Source: Candidatus Desantisbacteria bacterium
GTDB taxonomy: Bacteria; UBA9089; CG2-30-40-21
Assembly (NCBI GenBank): GCA_043806395.1
Contig: JAZDHC010000154.1
Coordinates: 1-42,187, forward strand
Reading direction: 5' to 3'
Length of the DNA stretch: 42,187 bases
The position numbers and the translations under genes were made by a program. Positions 3,926 through 42,174 of the stretch are shown here, piece after piece. Position 1 is the first letter of the stretch. Every line of letters starts with the position of its first letter. Below the pieces are notes generated by a model, which did no database searches, was not told the origin of the DNA, and saw nothing but the letters and a program-made list of their open reading frames with translations.

Positions 3926-4032
3926 GTACAACAATCTGTAATCAAGTATGGTGAGGGATGCTGTTACCCCTTGTTTTCATTATAGTTGCGTTGTTTTACG
4001 CTATGTGTGGAAAATGGACACTGCTCGTTTTA

Positions 4033-4417
<385 letters not shown>

Positions 4418-7400
4418 CTACCTTATCACCGCCAATTTACCATACCGTTTGCCCTGCGTATTACTGATCATGTACAGATAGACACCGCTGGCTACAGATT
4501 GTCCATCGCTATTTGTCAGGTCCCACTTTGCCTCTGTTGCCTTTGTGCCATCAACATCCGTGAGGGTTTGGACTAATTCACCGCTTAGGGTAAATATTTT
4601 GATTGTTGCCTTGCCAGAGAAATCAAACCGCATGTGCGAGAGCGTAGTTGGGTTTGGGTATATCTTCAGGTCGGCAAATCCTGGAATGCTTGATTTTTTG
4701 GCAATGCCATCAGCCTTAGCAATAATCTGGAAATGCCTGATATTGGATTCACCATCAATGGCTGATGAGTGATAGGTGCAACCTGTGCCTGCTCGCATAT
4801 CTATGGAAAGGCTTGTTTCTATATCCTTCAGACTTAACCCATACCCGGCTGGCAATTGCTCCTTATCCCAGCTAATGTTTACATCCCCGGAAAGGTTTGT
4901 CCTGATAGCAGCATCCCAGGCTATCACACCATCACCAACCTGTCGCATATCCCAGTCAAATCTGTCAAATATATCCTCCTCTGGATGGGTGAAGTACAGG
5001 CTGACAAATTTACCCTGCGGCTCTGGTGGCTCTGGTCTGTCATTCATATCAAGCCCGATGGATGAATCACGACTTATACCAAATCGAGGACAATAATTTG
5101 CCTTGTCCTCATATCCCCCGGCTGTAATGTGCAACCCAACTTGCCATGTATCAAGGGATACCACAACTGGTGATAACTGAAGGCTATTTGTGGTAGTGCT
5201 ACTGGCTGATATATTCGGCACAATCAACTGGCAATCACTCAATGCCGCAAACCAATATCCCTGCCATGGCTCAAGTCTGTTTGCCAACTGATAATTTCCA
5301 TCCACGAATCCATACAAGACATCCATGACCCAGCCAGAAGCCACTGCTTCCTTTAATCCCTTCCTCACCCCATCCTTTTGCACTGCAACCTTTGACCAAT
5401 CAGGGGTAAAATCAAACGGACAGCCGATCATGTTCCAGCCAGTCTGTAGGGGAATGGTAAATTCAGATGAGGATGATATCGCCCCTTCAGGTAAATCAAG
5501 ATTAATCGTTGCATCGTCCAGTAAGCCAAGCCAGTAGCCTTTGCCCAATCCCAACTTTGAGTAGACTTGAGTGTAGCCTGCCCGATTATATTCATAAATG
5601 TAGTTAGCTTTATCATAGCCCATCATCCCAAATACCGATGACTTGACTGGCATGGAGACCATGTGCCAGCCAGAGGAAAACCGCTGGCTGATTATCGGAG
5701 GCTTCACCGAGAGGCTGAATTGCCTCAAGCCATCGCTGTCAGACTTAAAAACCACAGGGGCAAGAGATCGGACAGGGACGAGTCCCCTGCTTTTGACAGA
5801 GGCAAGCTCTGTCCCTACACTTAGATTCCATGTTTGTCCACTTTCCGTATCCGTAAGCATTATTTCATATCCCTTTGTGTTACCCACAATATTTTCCATT
5901 GTCAGGGTAATCTCTGTCCCGGCTGGCATATTTGTCTGCACCTCAAATAAATACTGGTTATTCCCATACATCTGCCGCATATCCTGCATAAATTTGCCAA
6001 ACACCAGCCCCCACTCCGGATGTGGAAGGTATATCTGGATGTAGTTACCCTGTGATGGTGGTGGTGGCAAAGGCAGGTCATTCCATTGATCAAAGCCATC
6101 TGTTGATCCATAAGAATCAGCACCAAGCTGTATGCTTGCCAGCTGACCACCCACAGAGGCAGTTATGGGAAGCAACCACTGTCCATATTCCTCAATAGGT
6201 GAAATCACTCCATCATCTATGGGTAATATGGGAATACCACCCACAATTGTTTCATCTGAACCATCCACATTGTTGGTGCGATCATCTATGATAATCATGC
6301 CCATATCTGTTTGTTTGCCATTGCTTGCAGTGCCCTGTTTGGGTATTCCACCGGTCTGTATTTTATCGGTATCCATTGGGGTAGCAACTGTCGTACTTGT
6401 GGCAGAACCATTATCCTGGATTCCTGCCTTCGCAGGAATGACATTGGATTCTGTGGCAGAACCGTTATCCTGGATTCCTGCCTTCGCAGGAATGACATTG
6501 GGTTCTGTGGCAGAACCATTATCCTGGATTCCTGCCTTCGCAGGAATGACATTGGGTTCTGTGGTAGAACCATTATCCTGGATTCCTGCCTTCGCAGGAA
6601 TGACATTGGATTCATCCTGGATTCCTGCCTTCGCAGGAATGACATTGGGTTCTGTGGCAGAACCATTATTATTGGGTTCATCCTGGATTCCTGCCTTCGC
6701 AGGAATGACATTGGGTTCTGTGGCAGAACCATTATCCTGGATTCCTGCCTTCGCAGGAATGACATTGGATTCATCCTGGATTCCTGCCTTCGCAGGAATG
6801 ACATTGGGTTCATCCTGGATTCCTGCCTTCGCAGGAATGACATTACCTCTAACCCCTGCCAGCACCTTCAACCCCTGATAATCATCAGCCACAAACACAT
6901 AATCCCCCTGCATTGCCACGCCAAACGCCTTGCCACCTGTCTTATACGAGGATAGGAGGGTTGGCTGTGCCGGGTTGGAGACATCAAGTACGAATAATCC
7001 CGCTGCCTCACAAACCACAAAGGCTACATTGTCCCTGACCATCACATCCCAGGCAAAGCCATTGGTCTTATACGAGCCAGTCTTGACAGGCTTTGCTGGA
7101 TTAGATATGTCAATTATCTGTAATCCACCAGAATAGTCGGCAATATAGGCATATTTCCCAGAAAGCCAGATGTCATAGGCAGAGCCAGGGGTATCATATT
7201 GTCCCACCAATTTTGGACCATACGGATTGGAAACATCTATGACAACAAGTCCGCTACCATCATCTGCCACAAAGGCATACCCATCCCTGACACAAACCCC
7301 TCTGGAAATCCCATCCGTGTTATACTTGCCAATCTTTTTTGGTGTCTGTGGCTTAGAAATATCCACTATCTGTAACCCGGTCGCTCCTGCAGCTACATAG

Positions 7401-10400
7401 GCATAATTTCCAGAGATAGCGATATCATAACAAAAACCATCAATTGCCAGGCTTGAAACAAGAGTAGGCTTGTTGACATTGGATACATCAATCACCATCA
7501 ATCCCTTGGTCCCAGCGGCTGTGTAGGCATAATTGTCCACAACAACTGTATCTCGACAGGAGGAAGCTGTATTGTATTTGCCCGCAAAAACGGGTGAGGC
7601 TGGCTGGCTGATATCCATTATCTGTAGCCCGGCAGTGTCGCAGGACATGTAGGCATAGTTGTTTTTCAGGAATATGCCGTAGGACATGCCATCGGGCTTG
7701 AAACTGGCAATCAGTGTCATTGAACTAACGATTACTGTCCCTGTCCCAACAGCAGTTGCACTCGTTCCAATGGTCCCGTTTCCTGTCTTAACAACAGTTG
7801 CACTTGTCCCAACAACGGTTGTGGAGGTAGTACCTATGGTAATGGTTTTTGTCCCATCAAACACCAGCATCATTGGCTCAGTGGTAAACGACATGACCTT
7901 GCGACCCGTTGACATCATCATGGTCTCTTGATTCTTTGCTGTATTCTGAAGAAACTCCAGCTTGGTATTCTGCCGTTTTCTAAGCGTAAAATATACTGTG
8001 GCAATCGTCCCATTCCCATTGGCACTACCGGTCATCAGTCCGGCGGCATGACTTACAAAGCCGGCAGTATTCTTGATATCAGAGGCAATCTTTGGCAGGA
8101 AGGCATCATCCCCTTTAGTCCGATTAACCGCAAGGACAGTGGGGTCAAAGCCAAGGAAGAAGTCCATGCTGGTTAATGAGGATACACCCTCAACCTTTAT
8201 ATTGACAGGAAATTCTGTATTAACCTTAATTTTATCCATATTTTGGGGCAATTCAAGGAAAAGATGGGCGGATTGGACAGAGACGAGCCCTGTCCCTACG
8301 GCCAACATCGGTGCAAGTTGCACTGTCTGTTGTCCCACTGCCTTGAAATAATTATCCCTTAATATGGCAAAGTCAATTGTATTTACCTTATTATCCCCAT
8401 CAAAATCAGCATTGATATAGCCATTTCTATTCAATGCCCCTGTATCCAACCAGCCAGCATCAGTCTTTGTCTTAAAGTATGCTTCCCGCAGGCGACCAAA
8501 GTCTATGGTATTAACCATAGCGTCACCATCTGCATCACCATTTATCAGGGTCAGGGTGCCAGAGATGGTTACCTGCTGCTGACCAATAACCTCTATACCC
8601 TTCCATATATTTGGTGTGAGACCGGGACCATTTGCACGAATATTTGTTTTGCCCGGTGGAATCCTTTTGAGCAGAAAATAGCCCGCAAGATTGGCAGTTG
8701 TCGTAAGTTTTGTATCTGGTACATCAATATATATTCCAGAATATGATCCAACCCGGGGAATATCAATGGCAACGAATCCGTCCACCCGTCCAAATTCAAC
8801 AATAGATACATTCTTCTGGTCCGTAGCAATAAAGGGAATGTCCCTGGCAACTGAAACAAGTTTTGTCTTTCTGTTTGCATTTTGATTAAAATCAAAGGAC
8901 AATGTAGCATTACCCTTCTTTTTTGCCATAAATATGAACTCGGTAATTGTTCCATTACCCGTGATACTCCCGCTCATTACCCCGGCAGCATAAGAAATGG
9001 CTCCAGTGTCAATCCTTGAGGCTATTTTTTGGATAAAGGCAGTATCCTTAATCCCGATGGATTCAAATAACTCTGGATCAAACGACAGGAATAAATCCAT
9101 GTTTGTCAATCCTACAACCCCCTCTACCCTGATGGTCACGGTAAATGTTTCTCCAACCCCAACCTCACCTGGTGCATCCAACAACAGGGTCGTTTTTACA
9201 CTTGGTGTAAGTGTGGCATAAATATTGGTGGTTTGCTTTGTTTGGACAGAGACAGTACTTGTGAATGGATAATAGTTAACCTTTTGTATGCTCAGGGTAT
9301 GACTGCCGACCATAACATCATTGATGGTCAAGCTGCCTGTGCCAACAAAAATGCCATCAAGGTAAACCTGAGCATCTTTCACATTGGCAGCAACTGAGAT
9401 GAAGCCTGGCGGTGGGACAATGGTTTTGAATGAAAATCGGTAAGCCACTGTCAGCTTATTGCCGGGTAACGAATTATCTCTTGCATCAGTGGAAATGGTG
9501 CAGGCATAGGTGGCATTTTCATTAAATCCATCATTAGTAATGGTCAATTGTGTTTTATCCTCGTTCCACCCAAATACCTTGCCCGAAATATCAGGGGAAA
9601 TGCTGAATGCCTGCTGGACAGCAGTCTGGTTCATGGGCTTGCTGAAGCTGATAATCAGGGGCTTATCCACAGCAATATCCCTTTCTCCATCCTTAATATT
9701 TGCCCCTGTAACTGTGGGCATGATACAATCAATCCGGACATCACCATCACTCATATCATGAGCTGTAGCACTATTTGAATCCGTCACCACAGCCTTTACC
9801 CGCAGGTCAAGGGTATTTGTCCCGGGCACAACCCAGGGGTAAAAAGACAGGGTGCTATCTGTAATAATCGTATTATCAAAGGTTTTGCCTTTATCCATAG
9901 AATAATACAGAGACACCTTATAGGGTGAAACACCACCATTAATATTCCATGTAACATTATTAGATGCTGACCCACTTAAGGTTTCACTCCCATTGGGAAA
10001 TGTAAGGACAACGCTGAGTGTGCCGGGCACAAAATTATAATCCACGGTTACGCTCCCAACAGGAAGCTCTGGAGGCATTGGAATCTCTAATGCTCTCATG
10101 GCATTAGAGCCATCAGTAACGAATGCCAGCCCCTTGTTTATGCTGATATCGTAGCTGTCAGCTATTGGTTTACCACTATTTTCTATATACTTCTGGATGA
10201 GCTTTGGCAGCTTTGGGTTGGAAATATCAATGACTCGCAAGACGAAAACATTGAACAGTGTTGAGTCCTTTTTGTAACTAACCGTATAGGCATAGTTTCC
10301 ACGAACAATGGTTCTATACATTGATTCATCCAACATATCTGCATTGTATTTACCAACAAGTATTGGTGCCTCTGGATTAGAAACATCAATGATTTGAAGC

Positions 10401-11458
10401 CCACCGGCACCATAGGAAAGGTAGGCATAATTTCCAGAGACATAGACAGCACAGGCTTGTGCACCAGCCTTAGCACTTGTCAATTGAACATATCCAGCCT
10501 CTTTTATGTTAGAGGGATCGCTGACATTGAGTATCTTTAATCCAGTAGTAGCATGTGCCAGATAAGCATAATTACCCCGCACATAAACACCATATACTGT
10601 ATTTCGAGTGGCTTGTTCATAGATACCTTTGTCAACAGGCTTTTTTGGATCCGATACATCCACTATCCTTAAGCCAGTAATATGAGCCACGAAGACATAA
10701 TTGCCCAATGGATATATATCATACACTCGGCTTGATATCCCAAAGTTGCCCACCACTGTTGGTGTAGTAGGGCTTCCGACATCAATAATACGAACGCTTG
10801 TTGCCTGAAAGTCACTTTGATAATTGATAAGATAAACGAATTTACCATCCCCGACAAGACCATTTATAGTTCCACTAAGTTCATATTTTCCTACCCTCTT
10901 TGGGGATAAAGGGTTGCTGATATCAAGGCTATACATCCCTTTTGAGCCCTCCCCAAGATAGGCATAATTTCCATTAGTATAAACACCGCAATAGCTTTCA
11001 CCACTGCCAGTATATTTTCCAACAACCGTGACTGTTCCTGTTTTACCTGTGGAAAACTTAAACCTGCCAAGTGCTGGGTCAATGCCTACCTCCCCTGAAT
11101 TTATGGTTATATTTGGCCAGCCAGCCACATCAGACAGGTCAATACCTACTGGTTTTTTCTTGTTCTCTACATTAGTATACTCTGTCGAGCAGACATCTAT
11201 GCCATTATCATATATCCGCATCCCGTCATCAGTATTGAAAAGACTGGGTGCCTCGGTTCGTGAGATGGGCAAGCCATTTCTTCTGGTTAATTGCTTCTCA
11301 GCATTTAATCCGGAAAACTTGAACGAAGCCGGGTTATTGTCTCCGGCATTGCCAGCCGGTTGCTTTCGTATTTCTAAGGCATGGGCAGTGGTGGAGAGGC
11401 AGATAAGGGCGGAGATGATAAGTATTGCCATGGCATGGGGTAGGGATTTATTCAGCAT
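4418..11458 (-). CDS. Giant secreted multidomain surface protein (2346 aa): two LVIVD-repeat propellers, Ig-like domains, PEGA, cohesin-dockerin-cohesin, repeat linker, conserved C-terminal module, T9SS-type (FlgD-Ig-like) CTD
   Basis: - Signal peptide: MLNKSLPHAMAILIISALICLSTTAHA.
- Repeated GLQIIDVSNP / GLRIVDVSDPKKP / GLKILNVSDP motifs (LVIVD).
- PEGA-like VYLDGIFVGTGSL...HTLSIQKVNYYPF.
- Cohesin-like FTVTIRVEGVVGLTNMDLFLSFDP and FPVNIKVEGVSSLTSMDFFLGFDP.
- Dockerin pair DADGDAMVNTIDFGRL / DFDGDNKVNTIDFAIL.
- C-terminus IYPNP...SGVYLYMI...GKLAVIR.
- AAGGAG RBS upstream. Confidence 0.85.
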   Translation of the reverse strand: MLNKSLPHAMAILIISALICLSTTAHALEIRKQPAGNAGDNNPASFKFSGLNAEKQLTRRNGLPISRTEAPSLFNTDDGMRIYDNGIDVCSTEYTNVENKKKPVGIDLSDVAGWPNITINSGEVGIDPALGRFKFSTGKTGTVTVVGKYTGSGESYCGVYTNGNYAYLGEGSKGMYSLDISNPLSPKRVGKYELSGTINGLVGDGKFVYLINYQSDFQATSVRIIDVGSPTTPTVVGNFGISSRVYDIYPLGNYVFVAHITGLRIVDVSDPKKPVDKGIYEQATRNTVYGVYVRGNYAYLAHATTGLKILNVSDPSNIKEAGYVQLTSAKAGAQACAVYVSGNYAYLSYGAGGLQIIDVSNPEAPILVGKYNADMLDESMYRTIVRGNYAYTVSYKKDSTLFNVFVLRVIDISNPKLPKLIQKYIENSGKPIADSYDISINKGLAFVTDGSNAMRALEIPMPPELPVGSVTVDYNFVPGTLSVVLTFPNGSETLSGSASNNVTWNINGGVSPYKVSLYYSMDKGKTFDNTIITDSTLSFYPWVVPGTNTLDLRVKAVVTDSNSATAHDMSDGDVRIDCIMPTVTGANIKDGERDIAVDKPLIISFSKPMNQTAVQQAFSISPDISGKVFGWNEDKTQLTITNDGFNENATYACTISTDARDNSLPGNKLTVAYRFSFKTIVPPPGFISVAANVKDAQVYLDGIFVGTGSLTINDVMVGSHTLSIQKVNYYPFTSTVSVQTKQTTNIYATLTPSVKTTLLLDAPGEVGVGETFTVTIRVEGVVGLTNMDLFLSFDPELFESIGIKDTAFIQKIASRIDTGAISYAAGVMSGSITGNGTITEFIFMAKKKGNATLSFDFNQNANRKTKLVSVARDIPFIATDQKNVSIVEFGRVDGFVAIDIPRVGSYSGIYIDVPDTKLTTTANLAGYFLLKRIPPGKTNIRANGPGLTPNIWKGIEVIGQQQVTISGTLTLINGDADGDAMVNTIDFGRLREAYFKTKTDAGWLDTGALNRNGYINADFDGDNKVNTIDFAILRDNYFKAVGQQTVQLAPMLAVGTGLVSVQSAHLFLELPQNMDKIKVNTEFPVNIKVEGVSSLTSMDFFLGFDPTVLAVNRTKGDDAFLPKIASDIKNTAGFVSHAAGLMTGSANGNGTIATVYFTLRKRQNTKLEFLQNTAKNQETMMMSTGRKVMSFTTEPMMLVFDGTKTITIGTTSTTVVGTSATVVKTGNGTIGTSATAVGTGTVIVSSMTLIASFKPDGMSYGIFLKNNYAYMSCDTAGLQIMDISQPASPVFAGKYNTASSCRDTVVVDNYAYTAAGTKGLMVIDVSNVNKPTLVSSLAIDGFCYDIAISGNYAYVAAGATGLQIVDISKPQTPKKIGKYNTDGISRGVCVRDGYAFVADDGSGLVVIDVSNPYGPKLVGQYDTPGSAYDIWLSGKYAYIADYSGGLQIIDISNPAKPVKTGSYKTNGFAWDVMVRDNVAFVVCEAAGLFVLDVSNPAQPTLLSSYKTGGKAFGVAMQGDYVFVADDYQGLKVLAGVRGNVIPAKAGIQDEPNVIPAKAGIQDESNVIPAKAGIQDNGSATEPNVIPAKAGIQDEPNNNGSATEPNVIPAKAGIQDESNVIPAKAGIQDNGSTTEPNVIPAKAGIQDNGSATEPNVIPAKAGIQDNGSATESNVIPAKAGIQDNGSATSTTVATPMDTDKIQTGGIPKQGTASNGKQTDMGMIIIDDRTNNVDGSDETIVGGIPILPIDDGVISPIEEYGQWLLPITASVGGQLASIQLGADSYGSTDGFDQWNDLPLPPPPSQGNYIQIYLPHPEWGLVFGKFMQDMRQMYGNNQYLFEVQTNMPAGTEITLTMENIVGNTKGYEIMLTDTESGQTWNLSVGTELASVKSRGLVPVRSLAPVVFKSDSDGLRQFSLSVKPPIISQRFSSGWHMVSMPVKSSVFGMMGYDKANYIYEYNRAGYTQVYSKLGLGKGYWLGLLDDATINLDLPEGAISSSSEFTIPLQTGWNMIGCPFDFTPDWSKVAVQKDGVRKGLKEAVASGWVMDVLYGFVDGNYQLANRLEPWQGYWFAALSDCQLIVPNISASSTTTNSLQLSPVVVSLDTWQVGLHITAGGYEDKANYCPRFGISRDSSIGLDMNDRPEPPEPQGKFVSLYFTHPEEDIFDRFDWDMRQVGDGVIAWDAAIRTNLSGDVNISWDKEQLPAGYGLSLKDIETSLSIDMRAGTGCTYHSSAIDGESNIRHFQIIAKADGIAKKSSIPGFADLKIYPNPTTLSHMRFDFSGKATIKIFTLSGELVQTLTDVDGTKATEAKWDLTNSDGQSVASGVYLYMISNTQGKRYGKLAVIR
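6390..6850 (-). repeat. Nine in-frame copies of a palindromic REP-like unit (core ggattcctgccttcgcaggaatgacatt) encoding NVIPAKAGIQD, with or without an NGSATEP spacer
   Basis: Each unit has an 8-bp stem attcctgc/gcaggaat. Unit lengths are all multiples of 3. The track shows four reading frames open across the array (6165..6878, 6311..6955, 6295..6843 and the parent ORF). Confidence 0.9.
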
Positions 11459-11570: not shown

Positions 11571-13325
11571 CTAATTCATTACTTCCCCATCATCTATTGG
11601 TGCAATATCCATGAATTTGAAATGCGTGCTTGCGGCATTTTTTAATCCATTGTCTGTCCCTTGGTTGATGGTCACCGCTGGTGGTGCAGGAACATTTACG
11701 CTGGTCGTATTCACTTCAGGTGCTAATGGTGGTGCCTTGTTGGGGGTAGCACTATCACCAGAGGATGCCTGTGGTGAACCTGCAACTGTAGTCGTGCCTT
11801 GTTGTTCCTTGCTGGCAGGGGCAGGGGGTGGGGTTTGCTTTGTGTTCATGGGCGTTATTGTATCCACCTTGCTGGTTGCGGTCCCGCTGGCAGGGGTAGC
11901 ACCGTCCCCAGCCTTTGCCTGTGATGAGCCTGTAGGCGTGCCTACAATCGATGCAGTTGTTGCATCATTGTTGACCGTGGACTGCGGACTATTGACTGTC
12001 GTGACTATCGCAGTCGTACCAACAACTGGTGCTGCATTCCCGCTGATTACTGCTGGCGTTGTTGTGGTCGCATCAGTAATAGATGTTGCTGATTTATCCA
12101 CCGCAGTCGCTGTCTCCTCTCCACCATCAAAATCTATCCCATCCGCAGCCTTATCAAAATCAACAATCTTTTTCACCTCCGCAGCTTCTGTTGTGGTTGC
12201 CGTACCCTTTGCTGTCTCTAATGGGACATTAATGCCCGGCAGCACAGGCATCTTTTTCTTATCATCCTTCTTTTTCTTCAAATGCTCCGGGAAGTTTTTC
12301 TCCTCAATAAACATCCCCAGAGCAAACCGTTGTACGGCTATCCATGGAACTAATGGCTCTTTCTTCTTTTCCCCTGTTTCTAATAGCATCATCCTTTGCT
12401 TTGGCTTTGGTGACCCAAACCTTAGTGAGGTTGAGAGGCGATGAGCATTACCGAGAGAGTCATACGGGGCAAAGGCATAATCAAGTAAACACTTATTACC
12501 TGTTATTCCAAATCCAAAACCAAATTTTCCTGTATCTGCTCCCATTCTATACCCTGCCCGAAGCATGGTATTAAGCCCTGCCACCTTTGGCATGGTTCGT
12601 TCAATACCAAGGTTTGTGGTTCGTTGTCCATCATTGGGCATATTCACATCCATACAAATGATAGAATTAGTCAATTGATAGCTTAGCCCAAATCTCATCC
12701 GAAATGGCATTGGGTCATCAACTACGCCCTGCTTTTTATCACTGGCTTTTATGCCAATATTTTGTACAACTGCCCCAACCACCAGATTGTGTATTGGGGT
12801 ATGGCATAATCCGCCAAGGTCAACCACAAGATTGCTGGTATTCTTATTATCAATGCCCTGTTTTACGAATTTTAATCCTGCCCCAATAGCTGCACCTTGT
12901 CCAAACATCCGGCTAACAGCAAGGGACATGGCCATATCATTTGCCTTAAAATCACTGTTCATGTTGCCATTAGTCTTATTATACCTTTTTATCCCATCCA
13001 CCCCAAGCATGGACAATGATACCCCCAATGCCCCTTTATTCTTGTTGGGACGGACGAAAGCAAGGTATTCACTGTTAACATCTTGAAAATAAGAAAGATG
13101 CGTGGCCATAACCTCTGTTTGCGTAAGCTGAGAAAGACCAGCAGGATTCCAATAAATGGCACTAATATCATCTGCTAATGCACAAAATGCCTCTCCCATG
13201 CCTGCGGCACGGGCACCAACACCTATTTTCAGAAATGCTGCCCCAGACTTGCCTGTATCCTTTGCCTCAACCCCACTGACTGATACCATTCCAATAATCA
13301 ACAAAAATATCACTCGTTTTATCAT
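11571..13325 (-). CDS. PorV/PorQ-family-like outer-membrane beta-barrel with a ~280-aa low-complexity C-terminal extension
   Basis: Signal peptide followed by GAAFLKIGVGARAAGMGEAFCALADDISAIYWNPAGL, the hallmark PorV/PorQ N-terminal motif. The barrel ends in an OMP-type beta-signal ...NAHRLSTSLRF at aa 305, after which a T/A/P/K-rich tail continues. I moved the start to ATG 13325 because AAGGAG lies 7 nt upstream; the track start 13331 is a GTG. Confidence 0.6.
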   Translation of the reverse strand: MIKRVIFLLIIGMVSVSGVEAKDTGKSGAAFLKIGVGARAAGMGEAFCALADDISAIYWNPAGLSQLTQTEVMATHLSYFQDVNSEYLAFVRPNKNKGALGVSLSMLGVDGIKRYNKTNGNMNSDFKANDMAMSLAVSRMFGQGAAIGAGLKFVKQGIDNKNTSNLVVDLGGLCHTPIHNLVVGAVVQNIGIKASDKKQGVVDDPMPFRMRFGLSYQLTNSIICMDVNMPNDGQRTTNLGIERTMPKVAGLNTMLRAGYRMGADTGKFGFGFGITGNKCLLDYAFAPYDSLGNAHRLSTSLRFGSPKPKQRMMLLETGEKKKEPLVPWIAVQRFALGMFIEEKNFPEHLKKKKDDKKKMPVLPGINVPLETAKGTATTTEAAEVKKIVDFDKAADGIDFDGGEETATAVDKSATSITDATTTTPAVISGNAAPVVGTTAIVTTVNSPQSTVNNDATTASIVGTPTGSSQAKAGDGATPASGTATSKVDTITPMNTKQTPPPAPASKEQQGTTTVAGSPQASSGDSATPNKAPPLAPEVNTTSVNVPAPPAVTINQGTDNGLKNAASTHFKFMDIAPIDDGEVMN

Positions 13326-13364
13326 TGACACACTCCTTAATATTTATTGCTTTAATTAGGATAA

Positions 13365-13480
13365 CCATAAGGGCAGACACATAGGTCTGCCCCTACTTTT
13401 TCACCATAAGGGCAGACACATAGGTCTGCCCCTACTTTTTCACCATAAGGGCAGACACATAGGTCTGCCCCTACTTTTTC
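13365..13480. repeat. Three tandem 39-bp copies of a REP family A unit (...cataagggcagacacataggtctgcccctactttttcac)
   Basis: gggcagac starts at 13371, 13410 and 13449 (period 39). The third copy supplies the last codons and the stop of the NHL gene (…AVKK*, stop at 13471-13473). Confidence 0.9.
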
Positions 13481-16069: not shown

Positions 16070-18808
16070 TCACTCAAACTCTATCTCCGCCTCTTTCTCA
16101 GCCATGCCAAAATTAATCCCTTCAATCTCCTGCTCTGGCTTAAGATCCACATCAAAAAATTCAGGGGTAGTCATAACATATCCCTTTGGCAAACCAGACT
16201 TATCCATTCGCATCCGTATTTTGTTTGGCGGGATATTGGTAAACCTGTACAACCCACCGGATTCAGTAAAGGTAGGGGCATCATTAGCATACACAATTAT
16301 ATCACTATCACTGGTCTCCCCTGCATCCAAAACACCGTTCCTGTTCTCATCTATGAAAACCCTGCCATGAATAGTTCCAGCCTTCTGGAGTGGAAATTTA
16401 AGCTCAATACCCTTGCCTGCTTCTACCTTGATTGTTTGTTCCAACTCTGCCACGCAGATAAAATCAATGGGTACTGAACCAAGGTCAATATTCAGGTTAT
16501 AGACCCCAACAGGGACATCCACAAAACATGCCTTTCCATTCTCTCCTGTCATAGTCACCTTTGCCTTATCCTTAGTTTCACTCTTTCCAAAGATAGCAAC
16601 CTTTATTCCGGGAAGACCCTCTTCATTAGCTGAAAACACCCTGTTTGCATCCTCATCCTTAAAAACGCTGATGGATACAACGCCAAGTTTGGAAAACTCA
16701 TTTTTATCAGGCAATTTTTTGGAGATAGAGGTCATATCATCCGGGGTCACGCCAAAACGAAACTCCTTTGCCTCTGTAAACTTTATATCATTTGCCATGT
16801 ACTTAAGATAGTTCTGCCTGTTCTTTTCACGAAAGGTAAAACTCACCTTCCAGTTAAATTTTTGCTCATTTTTAGAAAAAAATTCCAGGTCCATGTTTAA
16901 TGGATAATTGGGAAATTTATATGTCAAATTTGCCTTTTTCTCTGTACTCATCCTTTCCACGAAGTTTATCTTGCCATTGCTCTTATATTGGTTTTCTTCC
17001 CTCTGGCACACCCGCTGCAAGCTCCCGGTAAGATTACGGGTCAGTTTTTTCTTAACCCCAACAGTAATGTTTTCTCTGTTAATGTCACTATTGGCAATGG
17101 TTTGATCATCTATACCTGTTATATTATAACTAACCCACGGATTAAACCCATTGTAAGAATATCGCAGGCTGATATCCCTTTTAAGGGAGAACTGCTCCTT
17201 CAGCTTGTCCTTTGAAATACTATCAGTCCTTTCCAGACCTATCCCTGATGAGACAGAGAGAGGAAATTGCGGCAAAAAATCCATCTTTACAGACAGATAA
17301 TTTACCAGATTCTTATCATTTTGATTAATTAACTCCCTGAAACTCTGCTGCTTTGTAAGTGTCAGGGTAAACTCTTTGGAAAAATTCCATCTATACCCTG
17401 AATTCCAACTATATCCCAAGCTCTTAGTATTAGAAGAGCCTGATTCACCATTAGAGAATGCCCCGTCAATCCAGAACTTTTTCCCCAGCTTAAACTTACC
17501 ATCAAGTTTCCACAGGGAGGTATTATTTGCTACCCAGGGGCTATTTGCAACAGAGTATTCGGTATTCAGCTTAATCTCCCCTACCCTTCTGGAATCAAAT
17601 GAGCTATTTATCTTCCATCTATTAATATCATTGTATGAAACCTGTCCGTTTGAACTTGAGTATTCGCCATTTAACTGCATATTGCCTATTTTAGTGGCTG
17701 TGCCATAGCCAGTGCTTAATTTCCAGATGGAAGTATTGCTGCCAATATTATGATATTTTCCATGAGGAGATGTTATCGAGTATTCACCATTAACCTTCAT
17801 GCTGCCCCGTCCGGTGGCTGTACCATAGCCAGTTGATAACCGTAAGTTCGAGGCATTGCCATCATCAGAAAAGCCCATCCCCATGCTTGCTCCATTGAAG
17901 CCATACGAACCATTCAGTGCCAGAGCCTGCTTGGCATTAATCAAGGAATACTTAAAATCACTGGAAACCCTTTTCAACTTAAACACCCCTCCTATCCGAT
18001 ACCCATCTCCACCAAAACTACCTGTTTGATAATCCATGCTCATGTTCATGGGATAAACGGTTGTGGTTGTTGTAGCAGTTGGTAGTTGGCAGTTGACAGT
18101 TGACAGTTGACAGTTGACAGTTGACAGGACAGAACTGCTGCCGACTGCCGACTGACTGCTCTGTGTTCCTGCGGACTGCTGACTGCTGACTGCCAACTGA
18201 CTGCTCTGTGTTCCTGCCGACTGCTGACTGGCAACTGCTGACTGACTCCCTGTCTCCCCCGCCACTTTCCAGAACAAGAGGGGCATACTCAAACTACCAC
18301 CAATCGCATCCCCTGCTACAGTATCCTTAAAACAAAAGGTATTAGCGGTGACACCTGATTTAGCAGTCAGATCAATCTTCCCGCCATAAACATCACCACC
18401 TCTACTTGATAATCCCTTAAAGAAAAGAGGCGTGATTCGTTCATGCCATAGTTTTTTATTAGAGGCAAGCCTTACGCCCTTAATCTGTGGGGCAGAGGAC
18501 ATCAGCCCTGTAACCCCTGGCATGATATCCGGACCAATACCCAAATCCACAGAAGGGTTGAAAATATCCACCCGGGTATAGTTAAGCACAAGGCTTTTCT
18601 CTTGCAGGTTTATATTCCCCTTCAATATTGGGCTAAACGAAATCAATCTTTCCCGACCACGAAGGTTCAGGTCAAAATCAACGCTACTTAATCCCTTATC
18701 CGTTCCCTCAATGCCTATGGAATAATTCCCTTCTCCATAAACAGCAAAGGCATTTTCAGAGACAACTGTAGTTAAGGCTATGATAATTGCTACAATATAA
18801 TACATCAT
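16070..18808 (-). CDS. 912-aa secreted, beta-barrel-like outer-membrane protein with C-terminal Ig/SdrD-B-like (carboxypeptidase-regulatory-like) domains; usher-sized, function unknown
   Basis: Signal peptide (…VVSENAFA). The middle ~500 aa is rich in alternating aromatic/Gly/Ser/Asn strands (WKLSTGYGTAT…, LNGEYS…, repeated). The C-terminus GTIHGRVFIDENRNGVLDAGE...GGLYRFTNIPP is SdrD-B-like. The CDS call is solid; the functional label is inference. Confidence 0.8.
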   Translation of the reverse strand: MMYYIVAIIIALTTVVSENAFAVYGEGNYSIGIEGTDKGLSSVDFDLNLRGRERLISFSPILKGNINLQEKSLVLNYTRVDIFNPSVDLGIGPDIMPGVTGLMSSAPQIKGVRLASNKKLWHERITPLFFKGLSSRGGDVYGGKIDLTAKSGVTANTFCFKDTVAGDAIGGSLSMPLLFWKVAGETGSQSAVASQQSAGTQSSQLAVSSQQSAGTQSSQSAVGSSSVLSTVNCQLSTVNCQLPTATTTTTVYPMNMSMDYQTGSFGGDGYRIGGVFKLKRVSSDFKYSLINAKQALALNGSYGFNGASMGMGFSDDGNASNLRLSTGYGTATGRGSMKVNGEYSITSPHGKYHNIGSNTSIWKLSTGYGTATKIGNMQLNGEYSSSNGQVSYNDINRWKINSSFDSRRVGEIKLNTEYSVANSPWVANNTSLWKLDGKFKLGKKFWIDGAFSNGESGSSNTKSLGYSWNSGYRWNFSKEFTLTLTKQQSFRELINQNDKNLVNYLSVKMDFLPQFPLSVSSGIGLERTDSISKDKLKEQFSLKRDISLRYSYNGFNPWVSYNITGIDDQTIANSDINRENITVGVKKKLTRNLTGSLQRVCQREENQYKSNGKINFVERMSTEKKANLTYKFPNYPLNMDLEFFSKNEQKFNWKVSFTFREKNRQNYLKYMANDIKFTEAKEFRFGVTPDDMTSISKKLPDKNEFSKLGVVSISVFKDEDANRVFSANEEGLPGIKVAIFGKSETKDKAKVTMTGENGKACFVDVPVGVYNLNIDLGSVPIDFICVAELEQTIKVEAGKGIELKFPLQKAGTIHGRVFIDENRNGVLDAGETSDSDIIVYANDAPTFTESGGLYRFTNIPPNKIRMRMDKSGLPKGYVMTTPEFFDVDLKPEQEIEGINFGMAEKEAEIEFE
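18076..18124 (-). repeat. Heptanucleotide tandem repeat inside the 912-aa CDS: (CAGTTGA)x5 perfect plus 2 variant units
   Basis: cagttgg tagttgg cagttga x5 encodes STVNCQLSTVNCQL. Two ~45-bp direct repeats (…actgctctgtgttcctgc(c/g)gactgctgactg…) lie at about 18150-18240. Confidence 0.9.
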
Positions 18809-19940: not shown

Positions 19941-19966
19941 GGGCAGACACATAGGTCTGCCCCTAC
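19941..19966. repeat. REP family A hairpin
   Basis: gggcagacacataggtctgcccctac lies immediately upstream of the 19916 start. Confidence 0.85.
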
Positions 19967-27165: not shown

Positions 27166-28489
27166 TTACTTTTTCCTCAACTTCCTATAAACCTCAGGCA
27201 ATAAAAGTCTAATAACCTCTCCCATAAACTCCTCATCCTTAAACATTCTGACAAAGAACTCCTCATTTTGCTCATATCGAATTGCCGCAATATCCTTAAA
27301 CTGCTGTTCAAATATTTTTTCAAAGGTTGATTGAGGGTTGTTTTTAGCAAGATCGACTAATCGTTCATTTGCCATGAAGTCCTGTGTTAGCTGTGCTAAC
27401 ACCTTATCCATTTCTAAAAAGTTGGTACCAAACCGCTCATTAATTTTTTCGATGATAACCGACAACGGCTCCTTTTTCTTATCTTTGCCCCCAATGTTCC
27501 CTTTGGCTGCATATATCTCTGAACTATCAAATATAGGGATACTACCCTCAAAGTCCTTTTCAATTTTGTATTTATCAAGCAAAACCTTGTCATCAACAAT
27601 TATCTTATCCATCTTACCCTTGGGCATAAGCTTGAGTAAAAATTTTGCATAGACACTAAACTTTTGCATTTCTATATCAAACATTCTACAAACCTGCGTA
27701 ATAAAGGCATAAAGCCGCAAAAAACGGGCAAGTCCTGTTTTTATCTCGTCTTGCTCCTTTGCGTCTTTTGCTGAAAAGCGGTCAAGTGCCGGTTGTAGTG
27801 AAGCGGCTAACTTTCCAATATCAGGTATTTCCTGCTGAGCTGTTTTATAATAAATTTTTGCAAAAAGCTCAATTTCGGACTGTTGCCACAAATGATATTC
27901 ATCAAGTGTGTTTTTAATGTCCTTGATAATATTAGGGCTTGCTTCCTCTGACAAAATTACAGCTTGATAATACGGTTCAAATGATTTCTTTATTTCATCA
28001 GCAGTATTGACAAAATCAAGCACAAAGGTGTCTTCTTTGCCTGACATCGTGCGGTTTAATCGAGATAAAGTCTGCACTGCTTTAACCCCTGATAATTTCT
28101 TATCAACAAACATCGTGTGAAGTAGCGGCTCATCAAACCCTGTTTGATATTTTTCAGCAACAATAAGCACATTAAATTCATCAGAATTAAAATATTCGGG
28201 TAGTTGCTTTTCCTTAATACTCTTTCCGTCCGCAGTTTTGTTTAGTTTTTCCTCTGTATATTCTATCCCCTCATCGTTAACAACACCCGAAAAGGCAACC
28301 AAAATATCCAAATCATCGTATTTTTTATCTTTAATGTATCTCTTAAATTAAGGTCAAAAGTGTGTGGGATTCTAACGCCAGTTCTTTATCAAAAGAATTC
28401 ACCCCACCCTTGATATATCCACCCTTAGTGATGAGATAATGTTCTATAGCTTCTTCAAGTTTTTTCTCTCTGTGGTCAAAATCAGACAT
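27166..28489 (-). pseudogene. hsdR: Type I restriction enzyme R subunit remnant (N-terminal ~48 aa joined to the C-terminal ~390 aa; nuclease and helicase core deleted)
   Basis: The C-terminal part LVAFSG…IEYTEEKLN…FNVLIVAEKYQTGFDEPLLHTMFVDKKLSGVKAVQTLSRLNR is helicase motif VI plus the HsdR C-domain. Hand translation of 28489 downward gives MSDFDHREKKLEEAIEHYLITKGGY…FDKELAL…, an HsdR-type N-terminus that stops near 28345. Confidence 0.65.
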
Positions 28490-28504
28490 TTTACACGACC
28501 TCCC

Positions 28505-29797
28505 TTATAATGTGAAAATTGCGTACAGGGGCACGGATTTTATACCATTTTCAAATCCGAAGTTTTTAGATGATACTCTTATAATATATTGGGGCGAATA
28601 CTTTTTCCTGTAAATCACCATGCTTTTCGCCTTAGTATTGTGTGCAGCTTTAACCTCCACAGGAATTACATGTCCTTCTTTAACAATCAAAAAATCAATT
28701 TCAGCTACACCCTTTGATTCCCAATACATAAGGGCATATCCATTTGACGCCAATGCACAGGCAACATAGTTTTCCGTAAATGCTCCTGAAAACTGTTTGA
28801 TTTCCGGAGAGTTTAAGGATTGCAATGTGATGCCGGCTTTTGCCGATAAAAGTCCAATATCATTCATATAAAGCTTAAAACTCGATAGATCCTGATAAGC
28901 AACAGGAGGCATATAGCCATGTTCGCACTTAACACATCGAAGAACCACACCCGAACTAACCAGCCAATCAATGGATTCACCGAATAACGAGGCACGAGCA
29001 CCGCTTTTAATCATCTTATATTGAAATTTCTTATTCTCTTTTGCCAATTGTGTCGGAATTGAGTCATATGCTCCTTTTATGCGCATACTTTCAGTATTTG
29101 TTGCGTATTTTGTCATGTCGGAGATATATGCATTTAAAATTAACTCCTTTATTTCCCTTTCGTTTATCACAACTTGCCTTGACACATGTGTTCCTACCAC
29201 TGCAGGCATTCCTCCGGTTACAAGGTAATCGTTGTAATCTGAAATCGCTTCTTTATGAAGTATTTCAGGCATTGGAAAATTATCATTATGGTGAGATCTG
29301 ATGTTGTCAATAAGCAAATCTTTACCTTTTGCCCATAAAAATTCTTCAAAATCCAACGGGTGCATGAATTCAATAAAAACCTTCCCTACAGGAAAAGAAA
29401 ATCTGTTGCGATTTATTGCAACCCCCAAAAGACTGCCAGCTGCAATGATATGGTATTCTGGAGCAATTTCTGCAAAGTATTTTAGAGAAGTAAGTGCTCT
29501 TTCGCAAAGCTGGATTTCGTCAAAAAATATGAGTGTCTCAGATACCTCTATTTCTGCGTGGAAGTACTGTTCTAATATTTTTATGATTCTTTCCGGTGAA
29601 ATAGCACCTTCAAAATAGGGAATAATCCCAATTTCCAGTTCAAAGTTAACATAAACCATATTTTTATAGTTCTTTTTGCCAAATTCACAAATGGCATATG
29701 TTTTGCCCACTTGCCTGGCTCCATGAATTAACATTGGCATTCGATTTTGCTGTTGATTCTTCCATTTTAACAATTTTTCAGTGATTTTTCTTCTCAT
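28505..29797 (-). CDS. AAA+ ATPase of the AAA_14/DUF4143 family
   Basis: Walker A GARQVGKTY, Walker B LIFFDEIQ. The C-terminal region has the length and pattern typical of DUF4143 proteins. The ORF is intact. Confidence 0.75.
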   Translation of the reverse strand: MRRKITEKLLKWKNQQQNRMPMLIHGARQVGKTYAICEFGKKNYKNMVYVNFELEIGIIPYFEGAISPERIIKILEQYFHAEIEVSETLIFFDEIQLCERALTSLKYFAEIAPEYHIIAAGSLLGVAINRNRFSFPVGKVFIEFMHPLDFEEFLWAKGKDLLIDNIRSHHNDNFPMPEILHKEAISDYNDYLVTGGMPAVVGTHVSRQVVINEREIKELILNAYISDMTKYATNTESMRIKGAYDSIPTQLAKENKKFQYKMIKSGARASLFGESIDWLVSSGVVLRCVKCEHGYMPPVAYQDLSSFKLYMNDIGLLSAKAGITLQSLNSPEIKQFSGAFTENYVACALASNGYALMYWESKGVAEIDFLIVKEGHVIPVEVKAAHNTKAKSMVIYRKKYSPQYIIRVSSKNFGFENGIKSVPLYAIFTL

Positions 29798-29896
29798 TAG
29801 TATCCCTCAGTTTTTAAAGAATACATTGAACCTATTGTCTAAATATTAACATATATAATTATATTTGTCAATAATAATGTATTCAAAAACATTTAT

Positions 29897-30561
29897 TCAA
29901 ATATAAAAAGGTTTATTGGAAACTTCCTTTTTGCCGGTTACACATTCGTAGATTAGGGATTTTTTGTAGGCGGTTAGTTTTTCTATGAGTTTTTGCTTGC
30001 CGGTTATTAACTTGTCAATTTGACTGCACTTGCGGTCAAGATACTTTATTATTGTATTAATTTCAATTTCTGTTTAAACTGGAATAGCTATATTACCCAC
30101 AGTTGCTGTGTTTAAATTTAACTGTGTTCCCATTTTCCCCAACCCACCATAACATTCTCCTAAATTAAGAATCTGATAAAGCCAATTTTTATATAAACTT
30201 TGCAATACAGGAAAATATACAAACCCATCATGAATGCAACATTTTATTTTTGCAATACAAGGCTTCCCTACAGTAGCACAAATACTTACAAATAAACTTT
30301 CTGGTTCAAGTTTAACACTTAAACTTGAACCCAATTCAGAAAGTTTTTCACCTGCACTAAGTAAATACTTATCTGACGAAGTTACATCACTTATTCGAAC
30401 CCACTCATAATCTCCGTTTTCATCATAATACTTACTATCGTCAATTGGTCTGGGACTGGCACCACGCTTGATACTACTTAATGATTTAATTCGGCAAACT
30501 TCCACCCCTCCGGTATTTCCCCAATCCACTCAATCCCACTATTCTTCATCACTCTTTCCAT
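29897..30561 (-). pseudogene. hsdS: Type I R-M specificity subunit remnant (single TRD, at least one frameshift and one in-frame stop)
   Basis: Three pieces lie in different frames:
- MERVMKNSGIEWIGEIPEGWKFAE… from ATG 30561.
- …VCRIKSLSSIKRGASPRPIDD…YEWVRISDV… (track ORF 30074..30529).
- The conserved C-terminus …IIKYLDRKCSQIDKLITGKQKLIEKLTAYKKSLIYECVTGKKEV… ending at 29897. Confidence 0.65.
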
Positions 30562-30578
30562 TATTCAAACACCGCCCA

Positions 30579-31583
30579 TTACTTTTTCTCAATTTGTTTC
30601 TTTGCTGATTCAATTGCTTGCATAAAGTGTTTTTCAACCTCAGTTATTTCATCATCAGACATCTTCTTATATTTCCCATATTCTTCCAATGCCTTTTTCG
30701 TAGCATCTTCATTGGAAACTTTTCCCTTATGCTCTAAAATATCGTGCCTTGCCAGTTTTAAGAATCCGTCCAGAGTTTCTATCCATTCCTTCATATGCAT
30801 TGGTATTCTTCGTCTTGCCTGCATTTCAGCCAAATCAAGAAACGCAGAAACAATCAAATTCAAACCTTCTATTTCCTCTTCAGTAAGATAGTTTTTTGCA
30901 ACTGAAATATCTACTTTTTGTGGCTTTGTTCCTGAAAAATTAGTAAGCCCCATAAATGGCTTTTTTGCATCTGCCCGAAGCATTATTACCTCAGCCGCTG
31001 TATGTTTATGAGCCGCCCAATGCATTTTATTTTGTATAGTTTGAAAAAATCTCTTTGATGTATCAATTGAAGGATTATAATCTACACTTGTTGCATAAAT
31101 ATCAAGTACCTTTCTCCAAAAGACTTTTTCTGATGAACGAATATCTCGAATTCTATCAAGCAATTCATCAAAATAGTTACCGCCACCAGCTTTTTTAAGA
31201 AGGTCATCATTCATTGTAAAGCCTTTAATGATATATTCATTTAATCGCTTAGTTGCCCATATTCTAAACTGTGTTCCACGAAGGGATTTTACACGATAAC
31301 CGACTGAAATAATTACATCAAGATTATAGTAATCAACAGCTCTTTCAACAGTTCTGTCCCCTTCATTTTGAACTGTTGCAAAATTTGCAACAGTTGAATT
31401 CCTTCTTAATTCGCCTTCTTCAAAAACATTTTTTATGTGCCTTGAAATTACAGATTTATCTCTTTGAAAAAGTTCTGCAATTTGATTGAGCGACAGCCAA
31501 ACTGACTCGTCTTCCATCCTTACATCAATCTTTGTCTGCCCATCTTCGGTCTGATAAATAATTAACTCAGATTTATTATCCAT
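30579..31583 (-). CDS. RhuM-family protein (Virulence_RhuM domain)
   Basis: ELIIYQTEDGQTKIDVRMEDESVWLSLNQIAELFQRDKSVISRHIKNVF…YNLDVIISVGYRVKSLRGTQFRIWAT is the characteristic RhuM N-terminal region. Such genes often ride in type I R-M loci. Confidence 0.8.
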   Translation of the reverse strand: MDNKSELIIYQTEDGQTKIDVRMEDESVWLSLNQIAELFQRDKSVISRHIKNVFEEGELRRNSTVANFATVQNEGDRTVERAVDYYNLDVIISVGYRVKSLRGTQFRIWATKRLNEYIIKGFTMNDDLLKKAGGGNYFDELLDRIRDIRSSEKVFWRKVLDIYATSVDYNPSIDTSKRFFQTIQNKMHWAAHKHTAAEVIMLRADAKKPFMGLTNFSGTKPQKVDISVAKNYLTEEEIEGLNLIVSAFLDLAEMQARRRIPMHMKEWIETLDGFLKLARHDILEHKGKVSNEDATKKALEEYGKYKKMSDDEITEVEKHFMQAIESAKKQIEKK

Positions 31584-34438: not shown

Positions 34439-35355
34439 TTAAAACCTCTTTCCCACAGACACCCGATGTGTATTGTCCACATCCCCATAAGGGACAAACG
34501 CATAATCAAACTGAAGGTTTTCTGTGCCAAACCCTATGCCAGCACTCAAGCCTTTATCCATGTCACTATTGGAGTTATATCCTGTTCGCAGGCTAAGTTT
34601 TGGTGTCAACTTGTACTCTACACCAGTATTTATTCTTATATTATTGTCTGTAGGTATGGTAACATCCAGAACACATAATGCCTTTTTGCTGGGCATATTA
34701 AAGGCAATACCACCCTTAATCTCCAGTGGCAGACTATCTGCCTCATTCTCAAACTTCATCTTTGTCCCCATGTTTCGTAAGGCAACACCGACATTTAATC
34801 CCTTAATCTTTGTTGAGCATAATATCCCCATGTCCATAGCTAACCCAGCAGCAGTGCTGTTCTTGATCCTCTGACGAATAACACGGGCATTTGCCCCAAC
34901 TGACATCTGTTCATTCATCCTGCGAGCGTAACTCATGGTTACAGCCATATCCCCGGCTGAAAAGTCCTCAGGGGGGTGCTGGCATCCTTCCAGCCATCTA
35001 TGTTCCCGCTTCCCAGATAGGTAATGCCACCAGCAATCACCCGACCATCACTCAATGGCTTAGCATAGCCCACAAACTCATACCTGACATCCTTGAGCCA
35101 TTCATTGTGCATAAAGGTAAACTCCTGATGTTTAATGCTACCCAGACTGGCTGGGTTCCAACAAATAGCATTCACATCACCATCAACCGCAACATATGCA
35201 CCACCAAGTGCTACGGGTCTTGCCCCAACATCTATTTTGAGGAATTGCCCGCCCTTTGTACCGGCTTTGCTGCTTGTTGCCTCTGTGTTCAGAGCCATTC
35301 CTGTGGTGATGACAAAGATACATATCCCGACTAACATTCTTTTTGTGATTAACAT
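34439..35355 (-). pseudogene. Second PorV/PorQ-family-like barrel, split by a 1-nt frameshift at a G6/C6 run (34971-34976)
   Basis: ORF 34939..35355 has a signal peptide plus GGQFLKIDVGARPVALGGAYVAVDGDVNAICWNPASL. ORF 34439..34948 ends in the OMP beta-signal …NTHRVSVGKRF. Adding one C restores …GWKDASTPPEDFSAGDMAVTMSY…. Confidence 0.7.
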
Positions 35356-42114: not shown

Positions 42115-42174
42115 GTAGGGGCGAACCTATGTGTTCGCCCAGTTATTCGGGTAGACACACAGGTCTACCCCTAC
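42115..42174. repeat. Pair of REP family A elements
   Basis: gtaggggcgaacctatgtgttcgccc (42115-42140) and the variant gggtagacacacaggtctacccctac (42149-42174). Confidence 0.85.

Follow-up and report, generated by a model that had tools for sequence, protein, structure and literature searches.

How did nine perfect palindromes come to lie in frame inside the gene of a giant secreted protein? The question is raised by 42,187 nucleotides of DNA from a Candidatus Desantisbacteria bacterium (NCBI GenBank assembly GCA_043806395.1, contig JAZDHC010000154.1, positions 1 to 42,187 of the forward strand), the whole of which we call the window. Within it the palindromes form a head-to-tail array in a linker of a 2346-aa protein. 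An earlier note on this DNA took the array for an element of the REP (repetitive extragenic palindromic) type that had expanded inside a coding sequence (CDS) and was tolerated or exapted there as a disordered spacer. That origin is supported by our analysis on three counts, namely the sequence criteria of the CGTC-1 family of REPs, extragenic copies in other genomes and orthologues free of the array; of the two fates, tolerance is the better supported, and exaptation is not borne out. We put the probability that a CGTC-1 element inserted, was amplified in place and in frame, and persists as a tolerated spacer at about 0.82.

The array and its host gene

Two adjacent genes frame the problem, the one that holds the array and the one immediately upstream of it.

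4418 to 11458, minus strand: host gene of the giant secreted protein, 2346 aa (open reading frame (ORF) and domain searches)
11571 to 13331, minus strand: gene of the PorV/PorQ outer-membrane family, immediately upstream of the giant gene (NF033709, E=7e-44, above cut-off)

The giant protein starts with a signal peptide and contains ten LVIVD repeats forming two beta-propellers (LVIVD E=1e-100), Big_5 and PEGA domains, a segment resembling dockerin and a C-terminal module of about 650 aa, which ends in a C-terminal sorting tail of the kind used by the type IX secretion system (T9SS). The Por_Secre_tail match itself is weak (22 bits, under the cut-off), and the upstream PorV/PorQ-family gene supports, through its context, the giant protein as T9SS cargo. 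As to the organism, the window also encodes a FliM that is 90% identical to a protein that NCBI names Candidatus Desantisbacteria. For the giant protein and a response regulator encoded nearby, look-ups of the exact protein gave no match.

The palindrome ATTCCTGCCTTCGCAGGAAT, with an 8-bp stem and a 4-nt loop that reads CTTC on the plus strand, occurs exactly nine times in the 42-kb window, each copy perfect and all between 6420 and 6838 (plus-strand starts at 6420, 6474, 6528, 6582, 6621, 6687, 6741, 6780 and 6819). The window holds no further copy, even with three mismatches or a degenerate pattern allowed, and the count expected from shuffled sequence is 0. Read on the minus strand, which is the coding one, the invariant unit has 33 nt, AATGTCATTCCTGCGAAGGCAGGAATCCAGGAT, and its nine identical copies fill 6413-6844, all head to tail; the string for the array unit is TGTCATTCCTGCGAAGGCAGGAATCCA.

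6395 to 6850, minus strand: whole in-frame array (residues about 1538-1687), nine units with their spacers, ending in the native linker AATGGTTCTGCCACAAGTACG (NGSATST)
6812 to 6844, minus strand: REP unit 1, first in the coding direction, then the 6-nt spacer GAACCC (EP)
6773 to 6805, minus strand: REP unit 2, then the spacer GAATCC (ES)
6734 to 6766, minus strand: REP unit 3, then the 21-nt spacer AATGGTTCTGCCACAGAACCC (NGSATEP)
6680 to 6712, minus strand: REP unit 4, then the 33-nt spacer (EPNNNGSATEP)
6614 to 6646, minus strand: REP unit 5, then the spacer GAATCC (ES)
6575 to 6607, minus strand: REP unit 6, then the 21-nt spacer with GCC>ACC (NGSTTEP)
6521 to 6553, minus strand: REP unit 7, then the 21-nt spacer (NGSATEP)
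6467 to 6499, minus strand: REP unit 8, then the 21-nt spacer variant AACGGTTCTGCCACAGAATCC (NGSATES)
6413 to 6445, minus strand: REP unit 9, the last, with the native linker NGSATSTTVATPMD directly after it

Three spacers are thus of 6 nt (GAACCC or GAATCC), four of 21 nt (AATGGTTCTGCCACAGAACCC and two single-base variants of it) and one of 33 nt. In coding order the periods are 39, 39, 54, 66, 39, 54, 54 and 54 nt, every one a multiple of three, and the array translates as nine copies of NVIPAKAGIQD joined by EP, ES, NGSATEP or EPNNNGSATEP (in the list above also the single-base variants), making up residues 1535-1687 (153 aa) of the host ORF. Four of the six frames are open across it (ORFs 6165-6878 and 6311-6955 on the plus strand, 6295-6843 on the minus strand, and the host gene). 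Tandem Repeats Finder reports a higher-order period of 159 nt at 99% identity, in which units 5-6 duplicate the block of units 2-3. Most of this had been described correctly in the earlier note: nine units of about 33 nt with their stem and loop, lengths in multiples of three and an in-frame reading that all eight periods fit, four open frames, and a position that separates the second LVIVD propeller from the C-terminal module, with which the domain positions agree. The spacers are the small discrepancy, having been given there as 24-33 nt where we find 6, 21 and 33 nt, a matter of where one sets the ends of the unit. The nine hairpins proposed for the mRNA are likewise all predicted by folding of the sense-strand RNA (-197.6 kcal/mol, z = -8.8). 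Tryptic peptides predicted from the array are AGIQDEPNVIPAK, AGIQDESNVIPAK and AGIQDNGSATEPNVIPAK.

The unit as a CGTC-1 repeat

Frame, place and period might equally belong to an ordinary protein tandem repeat, that is, a linker motif kept by selection, palindromic by chance and unrelated to REPs. Such a repeat would be expected in frame, within a linker and with a period that is a multiple of three, and it would have no extragenic copy in the window, all of which is seen here. The DNA of the unit points elsewhere. The CGTC-1 family, which is the same as Neisseria dRS3 and as RPE-6 of Rickettsia conorii, is defined by an unpaired head CGTC (variants TGTC and CCTC), an 8-bp stem opening with A and T, a loop of 4 nt and a short unpaired tail fitting CCA (Di Nocera, De Gregorio & Rocco 2013, BMC Genomics 14:522, PMC3733652). 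On the coding strand the array unit reads TGTC-ATTCCTGC-GAAG-GCAGGAAT-CCA, with GGAT next. The accepted head variant TGTC stands ahead of ATTCCTGC; ATTCCTGC and GCAGGAAT pair in an 8-bp stem beginning AT that is perfect in 9/9 copies; the loop has 4 nt, GAAG on the head strand; and CCA follows GCAGGAAT. Because head, stem, loop and tail all agree, and because the peptide VIPAKAGI has been published for the family, the unit is identified by its sequence as a member of CGTC-1.

That peptide appears in Additional file 3 of the same paper, where intragenic CGTC-1 copies encode VIPAKAGI in several R. conorii proteins and in a Chlorobium chlorochromatii membrane protein, and other frames of the element give SFLRKQES, LDSRFRGND and WIPAF.GMT (PMC3733652). 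The earlier note was right that peptides of this sort come from spuriously translated palindromic repeats. For VIPAKAGIQ, WIPAFAGMT, SFLRRQESR and related strings our search of the literature gave no main-text match, the supplementary table being the only place where they were found.

The array shares with published CGTC-1 elements its head, stem, loop, tail and VIPAKAGI peptide, the occurrence of in-frame intragenic copies in several species, and the lack of a dedicated transposase, none being known for CGTC REPs (PMC3733652) and none being present in the window. It differs in organization. CGTC-1 occurs mostly as single units or head-to-head dimers, head-to-tail dimers are negligible, and the largest stretches encoded by REPs are 43-82 aa long (PMC3733652), whereas here nine head-to-tail copies make up about 150 aa and have taken host flank along with them; single or head-to-head arrangement is a usual trait of the family, not a defining one. 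It differs further in its host, which belongs to a candidate phylum outside the five phyla of the paper, and in that dispersed extragenic copies are not seen in the same genome, as far as 42 kb can tell.

Other systems of short palindromes resemble the array less closely. Rickettsia palindromic elements (RPE-1 and its relatives; Ogata et al.) are inserted in frame in protein genes (PMC3733652). The array is like them in being an in-frame palindrome in a functional-looking gene, absent from orthologues and with the fold undisturbed at the site: the insert leaves the reading frame unchanged, and apart from it the host protein is intact and has insert-free homologues. RPE-1 is longer (about 100-150 bp), with one insertion per site, whereas the array is a 33-nt hairpin amplified in tandem. 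The intergenic mosaic elements of Neisseria (NIMEs), in which dRS3 is interleaved with other repeats, are clustered and use the same hairpin family, and N. meningitidis ORFs that translate such clusters are among the database matches of the array peptide; but NIMEs are extragenic, and their spacers are other repeat families (repeats of 50-150 bp) where the array is coding and has spacers of 6-33 nt of duplicated host linker. REPIN/RAYT systems (GTAG) also consist of short hairpin-forming repeats, but the head of the array unit is TGTC, not GTAG, there is no inverted doublet, and the window contains no RAYT gene of the IS200/IS605 type. None of the window ORFs of at least 150 aa matched a transposase family; mobilization by a RAYT or IS110-type gene within the window was considered and set aside, no such gene being present.

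How widely the hairpin is spread was assessed with the query GGATTCCTGCNNNNGCAGGAATGAC against one genome per species (GTDB), which returned at least 120 loci with at least 138 copies, in hosts of at least roughly 16 phyla. The matches listed include Bacteroidota, Nitrospirota, Chloroflexota, Alpha- and Gammaproteobacteria (Rickettsia among them), Campylobacterota, Desulfobacterota/Thermodesulfobacteriota, Planctomycetota, Omnitrophota, Poribacteria, Hydrogenedentota, Binatia and KSB1, as well as two lineages of the candidate phyla radiation (Kuenenbacteria and Peregrinibacteria) and one metagenome-assembled genome of Nanoarchaeota. The core shared between the array unit and the element of other genomes is identical over 25-29 nt, and the conserved 25-mer form, GGATTCCTGC-N4-GCAGGAATGAC, extends far beyond the five phyla of 2013. 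Among the matches listed, loops on the head strand are GAAA (41), GAAG (38), GGAA (14), GCAA (13), GCAG (9) and GGAG (8). About 93% of the 138 fit GNAR when read on the CGTC strand, where hardly any reverse complements occur.

In those genomes the 25-mer is mostly extragenic. Among the same listed matches, 21% of copies fall in stop-to-stop frames of at least 300 codons against 62% of random positions in the same loci, and only 8 of 138 lie at least 80 codons inside a frame, counted from either end. Within 120 nt, 34 of the 138 had an inverted partner and none a same-orientation one, in agreement with the head-to-head prevalence reported before (PMC3733652). BLASTN of the window against the REP-bearing loci (at least 120) gave the REP itself as the sole match, which means that none of these loci is from a close relative. 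Searched against 5.8 billion proteins, the array peptide found only 24 matches, in short hypothetical ORFs of 94-261 aa, several of them from N. meningitidis. In two JGI matches (L170 and L171) the called ORF is intergenic and consists of copies of the same hairpin arrayed head to tail, at periods of 36, 47, 23, 82 and 22 nt in the first and 60 nt in the second. Tight head-to-tail arrays of CGTC-1 therefore exist, if rarely, and outside genes their periods need not be multiples of three.

Two further patterns were noted at these loci. Three copies lie at least 146 codons deep in frames of 500-580 codons, one of them reading VIPAKAGIQ, and may be further in-frame insertions; at five other loci the hairpin sits, with conserved flanks, within longer tandem repeats of about 160-310 nt (3-5 copies seen), seemingly as part of a larger repeated module.

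L098 (Hydrogenedentes UBA2224), about 1917: deep in-frame copy
L014 (Nanoarchaeota), about 1558: deep in-frame copy
L057 (Dehalococcoidia), about 1772: deep in-frame copy
L027 (Flavobacteriaceae bacterium GF1), L114 (Winogradskyella ludwigii), L047 (Ca. Omnitrophus magneticus), L010 and L028: larger tandem module

Probable insertion and amplification in the linker

The orthologues bear on the age of the array in the gene. When metagenomes were scanned with an alignment built on the C-terminal half of the giant protein, two contigs (L121 and L122) were found to carry a full-length orthologue of 2248 aa and the same architecture, 78% identical to the window gene in amino acids and 82% in nucleotides over residues 1-1533. 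The nucleotide alignment ends at CDS position 4596 and restarts at 5050, exactly around the array, and no CGTC-1 hairpin is present in these loci (9-10 kb). At the array site the orthologue has about 109 nt that encode a G/N/D/Q-rich stretch. Next comes DNGRGSVTSTTVAKPMD, which corresponds to the DNGSATSTTVATPMD that the window has just past its last unit. A distant orthologue (P0001, 44% aa identity) connects propeller and C-terminal module through a short unrelated linker, again with no array. This comparison had been proposed in the earlier note, together with the proviso that a diverged protein repeat at the same place would mean an ordinary repeat; both orthologues have the same domain order, and neither has a repeat at the site. 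As far as these loci go, the linker is variable and the array was inserted into it in this lineage only.

With the orthologues in hand the ordinary protein repeat can be judged. Conserved as protein, diverged as DNA and present in orthologues is how it should look, and it does not: the cores are 100% identical in DNA and not merely in protein, the 25-29-nt core is identical to a mostly extragenic element in at least 120 genomes of many phyla, the published CGTC-1 definition fits, and orthologues at 82% nucleotide and 44% amino acid identity have nothing of the kind at the site. We consider this explanation extremely improbable, and the same comparison excludes both an old protein repeat and a gene fusion. 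Fusion of two genes, or read-through of a REP array between them, was rejected on the grounds that the orthologues are single genes without the array and that the C-terminal module lacks a separate signal peptide.

The spacers record where the amplified DNA came from. Spacer sequence AATGGTTCTGCCACA equals the native linker after the last unit, and that linker is conserved in the orthologue; because of this, the NGSAT part of the spacer is a copy of host linker, and the amplified module reads as REP plus 15 nt of host flank plus GAACCC. The 21-nt spacer (e.g., 6446-6466) is moreover a perfect 7-bp palindrome with a 3-nt loop, GGTTCTG-CCA-CAGAACC, of which the native linker holds the first arm only, the second (GAACC) being absent there. 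The extra arm hints at a duplication junction made by fold-back or template switching. Head-to-tail order, co-amplified flank, block duplication and identical cores together favor one insertion followed by tandem duplication over nine separate insertions, which would fit less well.

The history we propose would begin with a single CGTC-1 hairpin lodging in the linker that joins the second LVIVD propeller to the C-terminal module, a fast-evolving stretch of low complexity, in a giant T9SS-secreted surface protein of a Candidatus Desantisbacteria-like groundwater bacterium. The REP would then have been amplified in place with 15-21 nt of adjacent host linker, probably by slipped-strand or unequal-recombination tandem duplication, to nine head-to-tail copies. 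Since an essential secretion tail lies downstream, the survivors would be those with periods in multiples of three, frame-shifting variants losing the C-terminal tail and with it, lethally, the function of the protein. The product would be about 150 extra residues, probably a disordered spacer. AlphaFold gives the propeller pLDDT values (predicted local distance difference test) of 73-94 and the array 21-26, all coil and without secondary structure; the low values are weakly consistent with disorder.

Perfect 33-nt repeats are hard for short-read assembly, and the array might have been inflated or mis-joined, or two genes might have been brought together by REP-mediated chimerism. Against this, both flanks are collinear with one orthologous gene, so chimerism of the gene is excluded. 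Junctions from unit to spacer to unit, and the junction of array and propeller (6816-6900, run X3), recur in contigs of independent public groundwater and drinking-water runs from other studies, so that the array is not a one-off assembly artefact; the public runs that carry pieces of the window are groundwater, drinking-water and biofilm metagenomes. Contigs of two other samples also show spacer changes at other positions (6572 A>G, 6715 G>A). Within the array itself the order of the units is non-degenerate, owing to its spacer variants, and doubt attaches only to the exact number of units. We judge an artefact very unlikely.

Several observations weigh against the insertion and amplification that we favor. 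The public contigs break inside the repeats, at a genome depth of about 2x, and are too short to count units. The AlphaFold alignment comprised 3 sequences, and the C-terminal module scores low as well. Translation of the array is something that we infer; in a groundwater metatranscriptome, perfect-match contigs flank it (5265-5518 and 7760-7909), which suggests that the giant gene is transcribed, DNA carry-over being possible too. Capture from this genome's own REP pool is presumed; no extragenic copy of the array REP lies in the 42-kb window, nor any canonical CGTC-1 in about 146 kb (partly redundant) of Desantisbacteria relatives and orthologous loci. The earlier note had held that the reading would fail if the unit never occurred outside coding regions; in other genomes it does so occur, while its own window gave no such copy. 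Dispersed REPs do occur in the window, but they belong to another family, GTAG-headed and unrelated to the array unit (GTAGGGGCAGACCTATGTGTCTGCCC, minus strand), of which the copy at 42149 has compensatory stem changes (GGGTAGAC...GTCTACCC).

13371 to 13474, minus strand: GTAG family, three perfect tandem units of 39 nt, in the intergenic gap that separates the PorV gene from the next one
19941 to 19966 and 42149 to 42174, minus strand: GTAG family, dispersed copies

Finally, the nine cores show substitutions at 0 of 297 nt, against 3-4 independent ones in about 150 nt of spacers, and the rough chance that all changes should fall in spacers is 0.01-0.04. Under neutrality the intact cores are mildly unexpected; very recent expansion, gene conversion or other homogenization, or constraint could each account for them.

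The Desantisbacteria relatives L163 and L164 contain an intergenic repeat whose end is CTCCGAGCATCGATGGAATATTGTCATTCCTGC, a 26-nt insert and then GCAGGAAT. This is a CGTC-1-like stem with a long structured loop, possibly related to the REP in the manner of a miniature inverted-repeat transposable element.

L164, 83 to 120 and 8700 to 8830: long-loop hairpin repeat
L163, about 4766: long-loop hairpin repeat

Constraint on the cores is the starting point of another explanation, a selected length module driven by the hairpins: a contingency locus for the length of the spacer, or mRNA hairpins that pace translation or stabilize the message, with the REP cores kept intact by selection or gene conversion. 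The unchanged cores beside changed spacers speak for it, as do the other samples' spacer variants at yet other positions, the nine strongly predicted mRNA hairpins, the strand-specific loop across phyla (with the GNAR strand being sense here) and the fact that the host is a surface protein. It is met by the counterarguments that recent expansion suffices for identical cores, that the sister species manages without the array, that public contigs show neither copy-number variation nor joints (within the limits of their depth and their breaks inside the array), and that intragenic REPs sit in unrelated proteins, which has been argued to speak against functional constraint (PMC3733652). On balance we think it unlikely. 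A bolder version combines a conserved CGTC-1 hairpin, made or maintained by a near-universal mechanism, with perfect cores that serve as a switch of stalk length or as a device for RNA pacing or stability. The mechanism would be called for by the occurrence of one 25-mer in at least about 16 phyla, with its GNAR loop strand-specific and no transposase known for it. We regard this as a long shot; if true, slippage promoted by the hairpins would switch the length of a surface protein's stalk, or the hairpins would be an RNA device between two large folding units.

Neighboring features and meaning of the array

Beyond the array, the window holds a second giant LVIVD / Big_5 protein of 1795 aa, without a REP array, and beside it a seemingly truncated ORF of the PorV family (169 aa, profile positions 110-323). 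The two make up a paralogous cargo/PorV pair, which 34439-34948 and 36411-41798 (minus strand) cover. Directly on the 3′ side of the stop codon of the first giant gene lie about 17 copies of AGAGTTG (4032-4158), an 11-nt gap and about 35 copies of CAACTCY (4171-4415), an inverted pair that could form a very long hairpin in the 3′ untranslated region. The orthologous locus L122 has a smaller inverted pair further downstream, built of other heptamers (GTTGATA / TATCAAC). Other heptamer arrays in the window are found at 18075-18247 and 2714-2752 (GCAGTTG x7.6, CTGCCGA/CTGCTGA, GTTGATAG); the former lies inside the N-terminal part of the ORF at 16070-18808 (minus strand), whose true start may lie downstream. 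At 27166-31583 (minus strand), type I restriction-modification fragments (an HsdR C-terminal piece at 27166-28311 and an HsdS half at 30074-30529) are interspersed with an AAA/DUF4143 ATPase and a gene of the RhuM family, by appearance a disrupted or mosaic defense locus.

In-frame insertions of REPs and RPEs, including CGTC-1 copies that encode VIPAKAGI, are already published, and the present array is a large and clear example. What stands out is the head-to-tail amplification, the length of about 150 aa against a published maximum of 43-82 aa (PMC3733652), the co-amplified flank and the host, a T9SS cargo protein. For annotation there is a warning, together with its converse: VIPAKAGIQ, SFLRRQESR, WIPAFAGMT and LDSCLRRND usually flag spurious ORFs, and here a genuine protein very probably contains one such peptide. 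That the hairpin is conserved in so many phyla, and with strand specificity, merits a dedicated survey. For the family, the finding extends CGTC-1 to a candidate phylum and to a tandem, head-to-tail coding form of 150 residues. It also offers an unusually clean natural case of an extragenic repeat turned into protein sequence, in which the insertion can be dated by its absence from a sister species at 82% nucleotide identity, the duplication of the flank is visible, and a downstream secretion signal would act as the frame filter.

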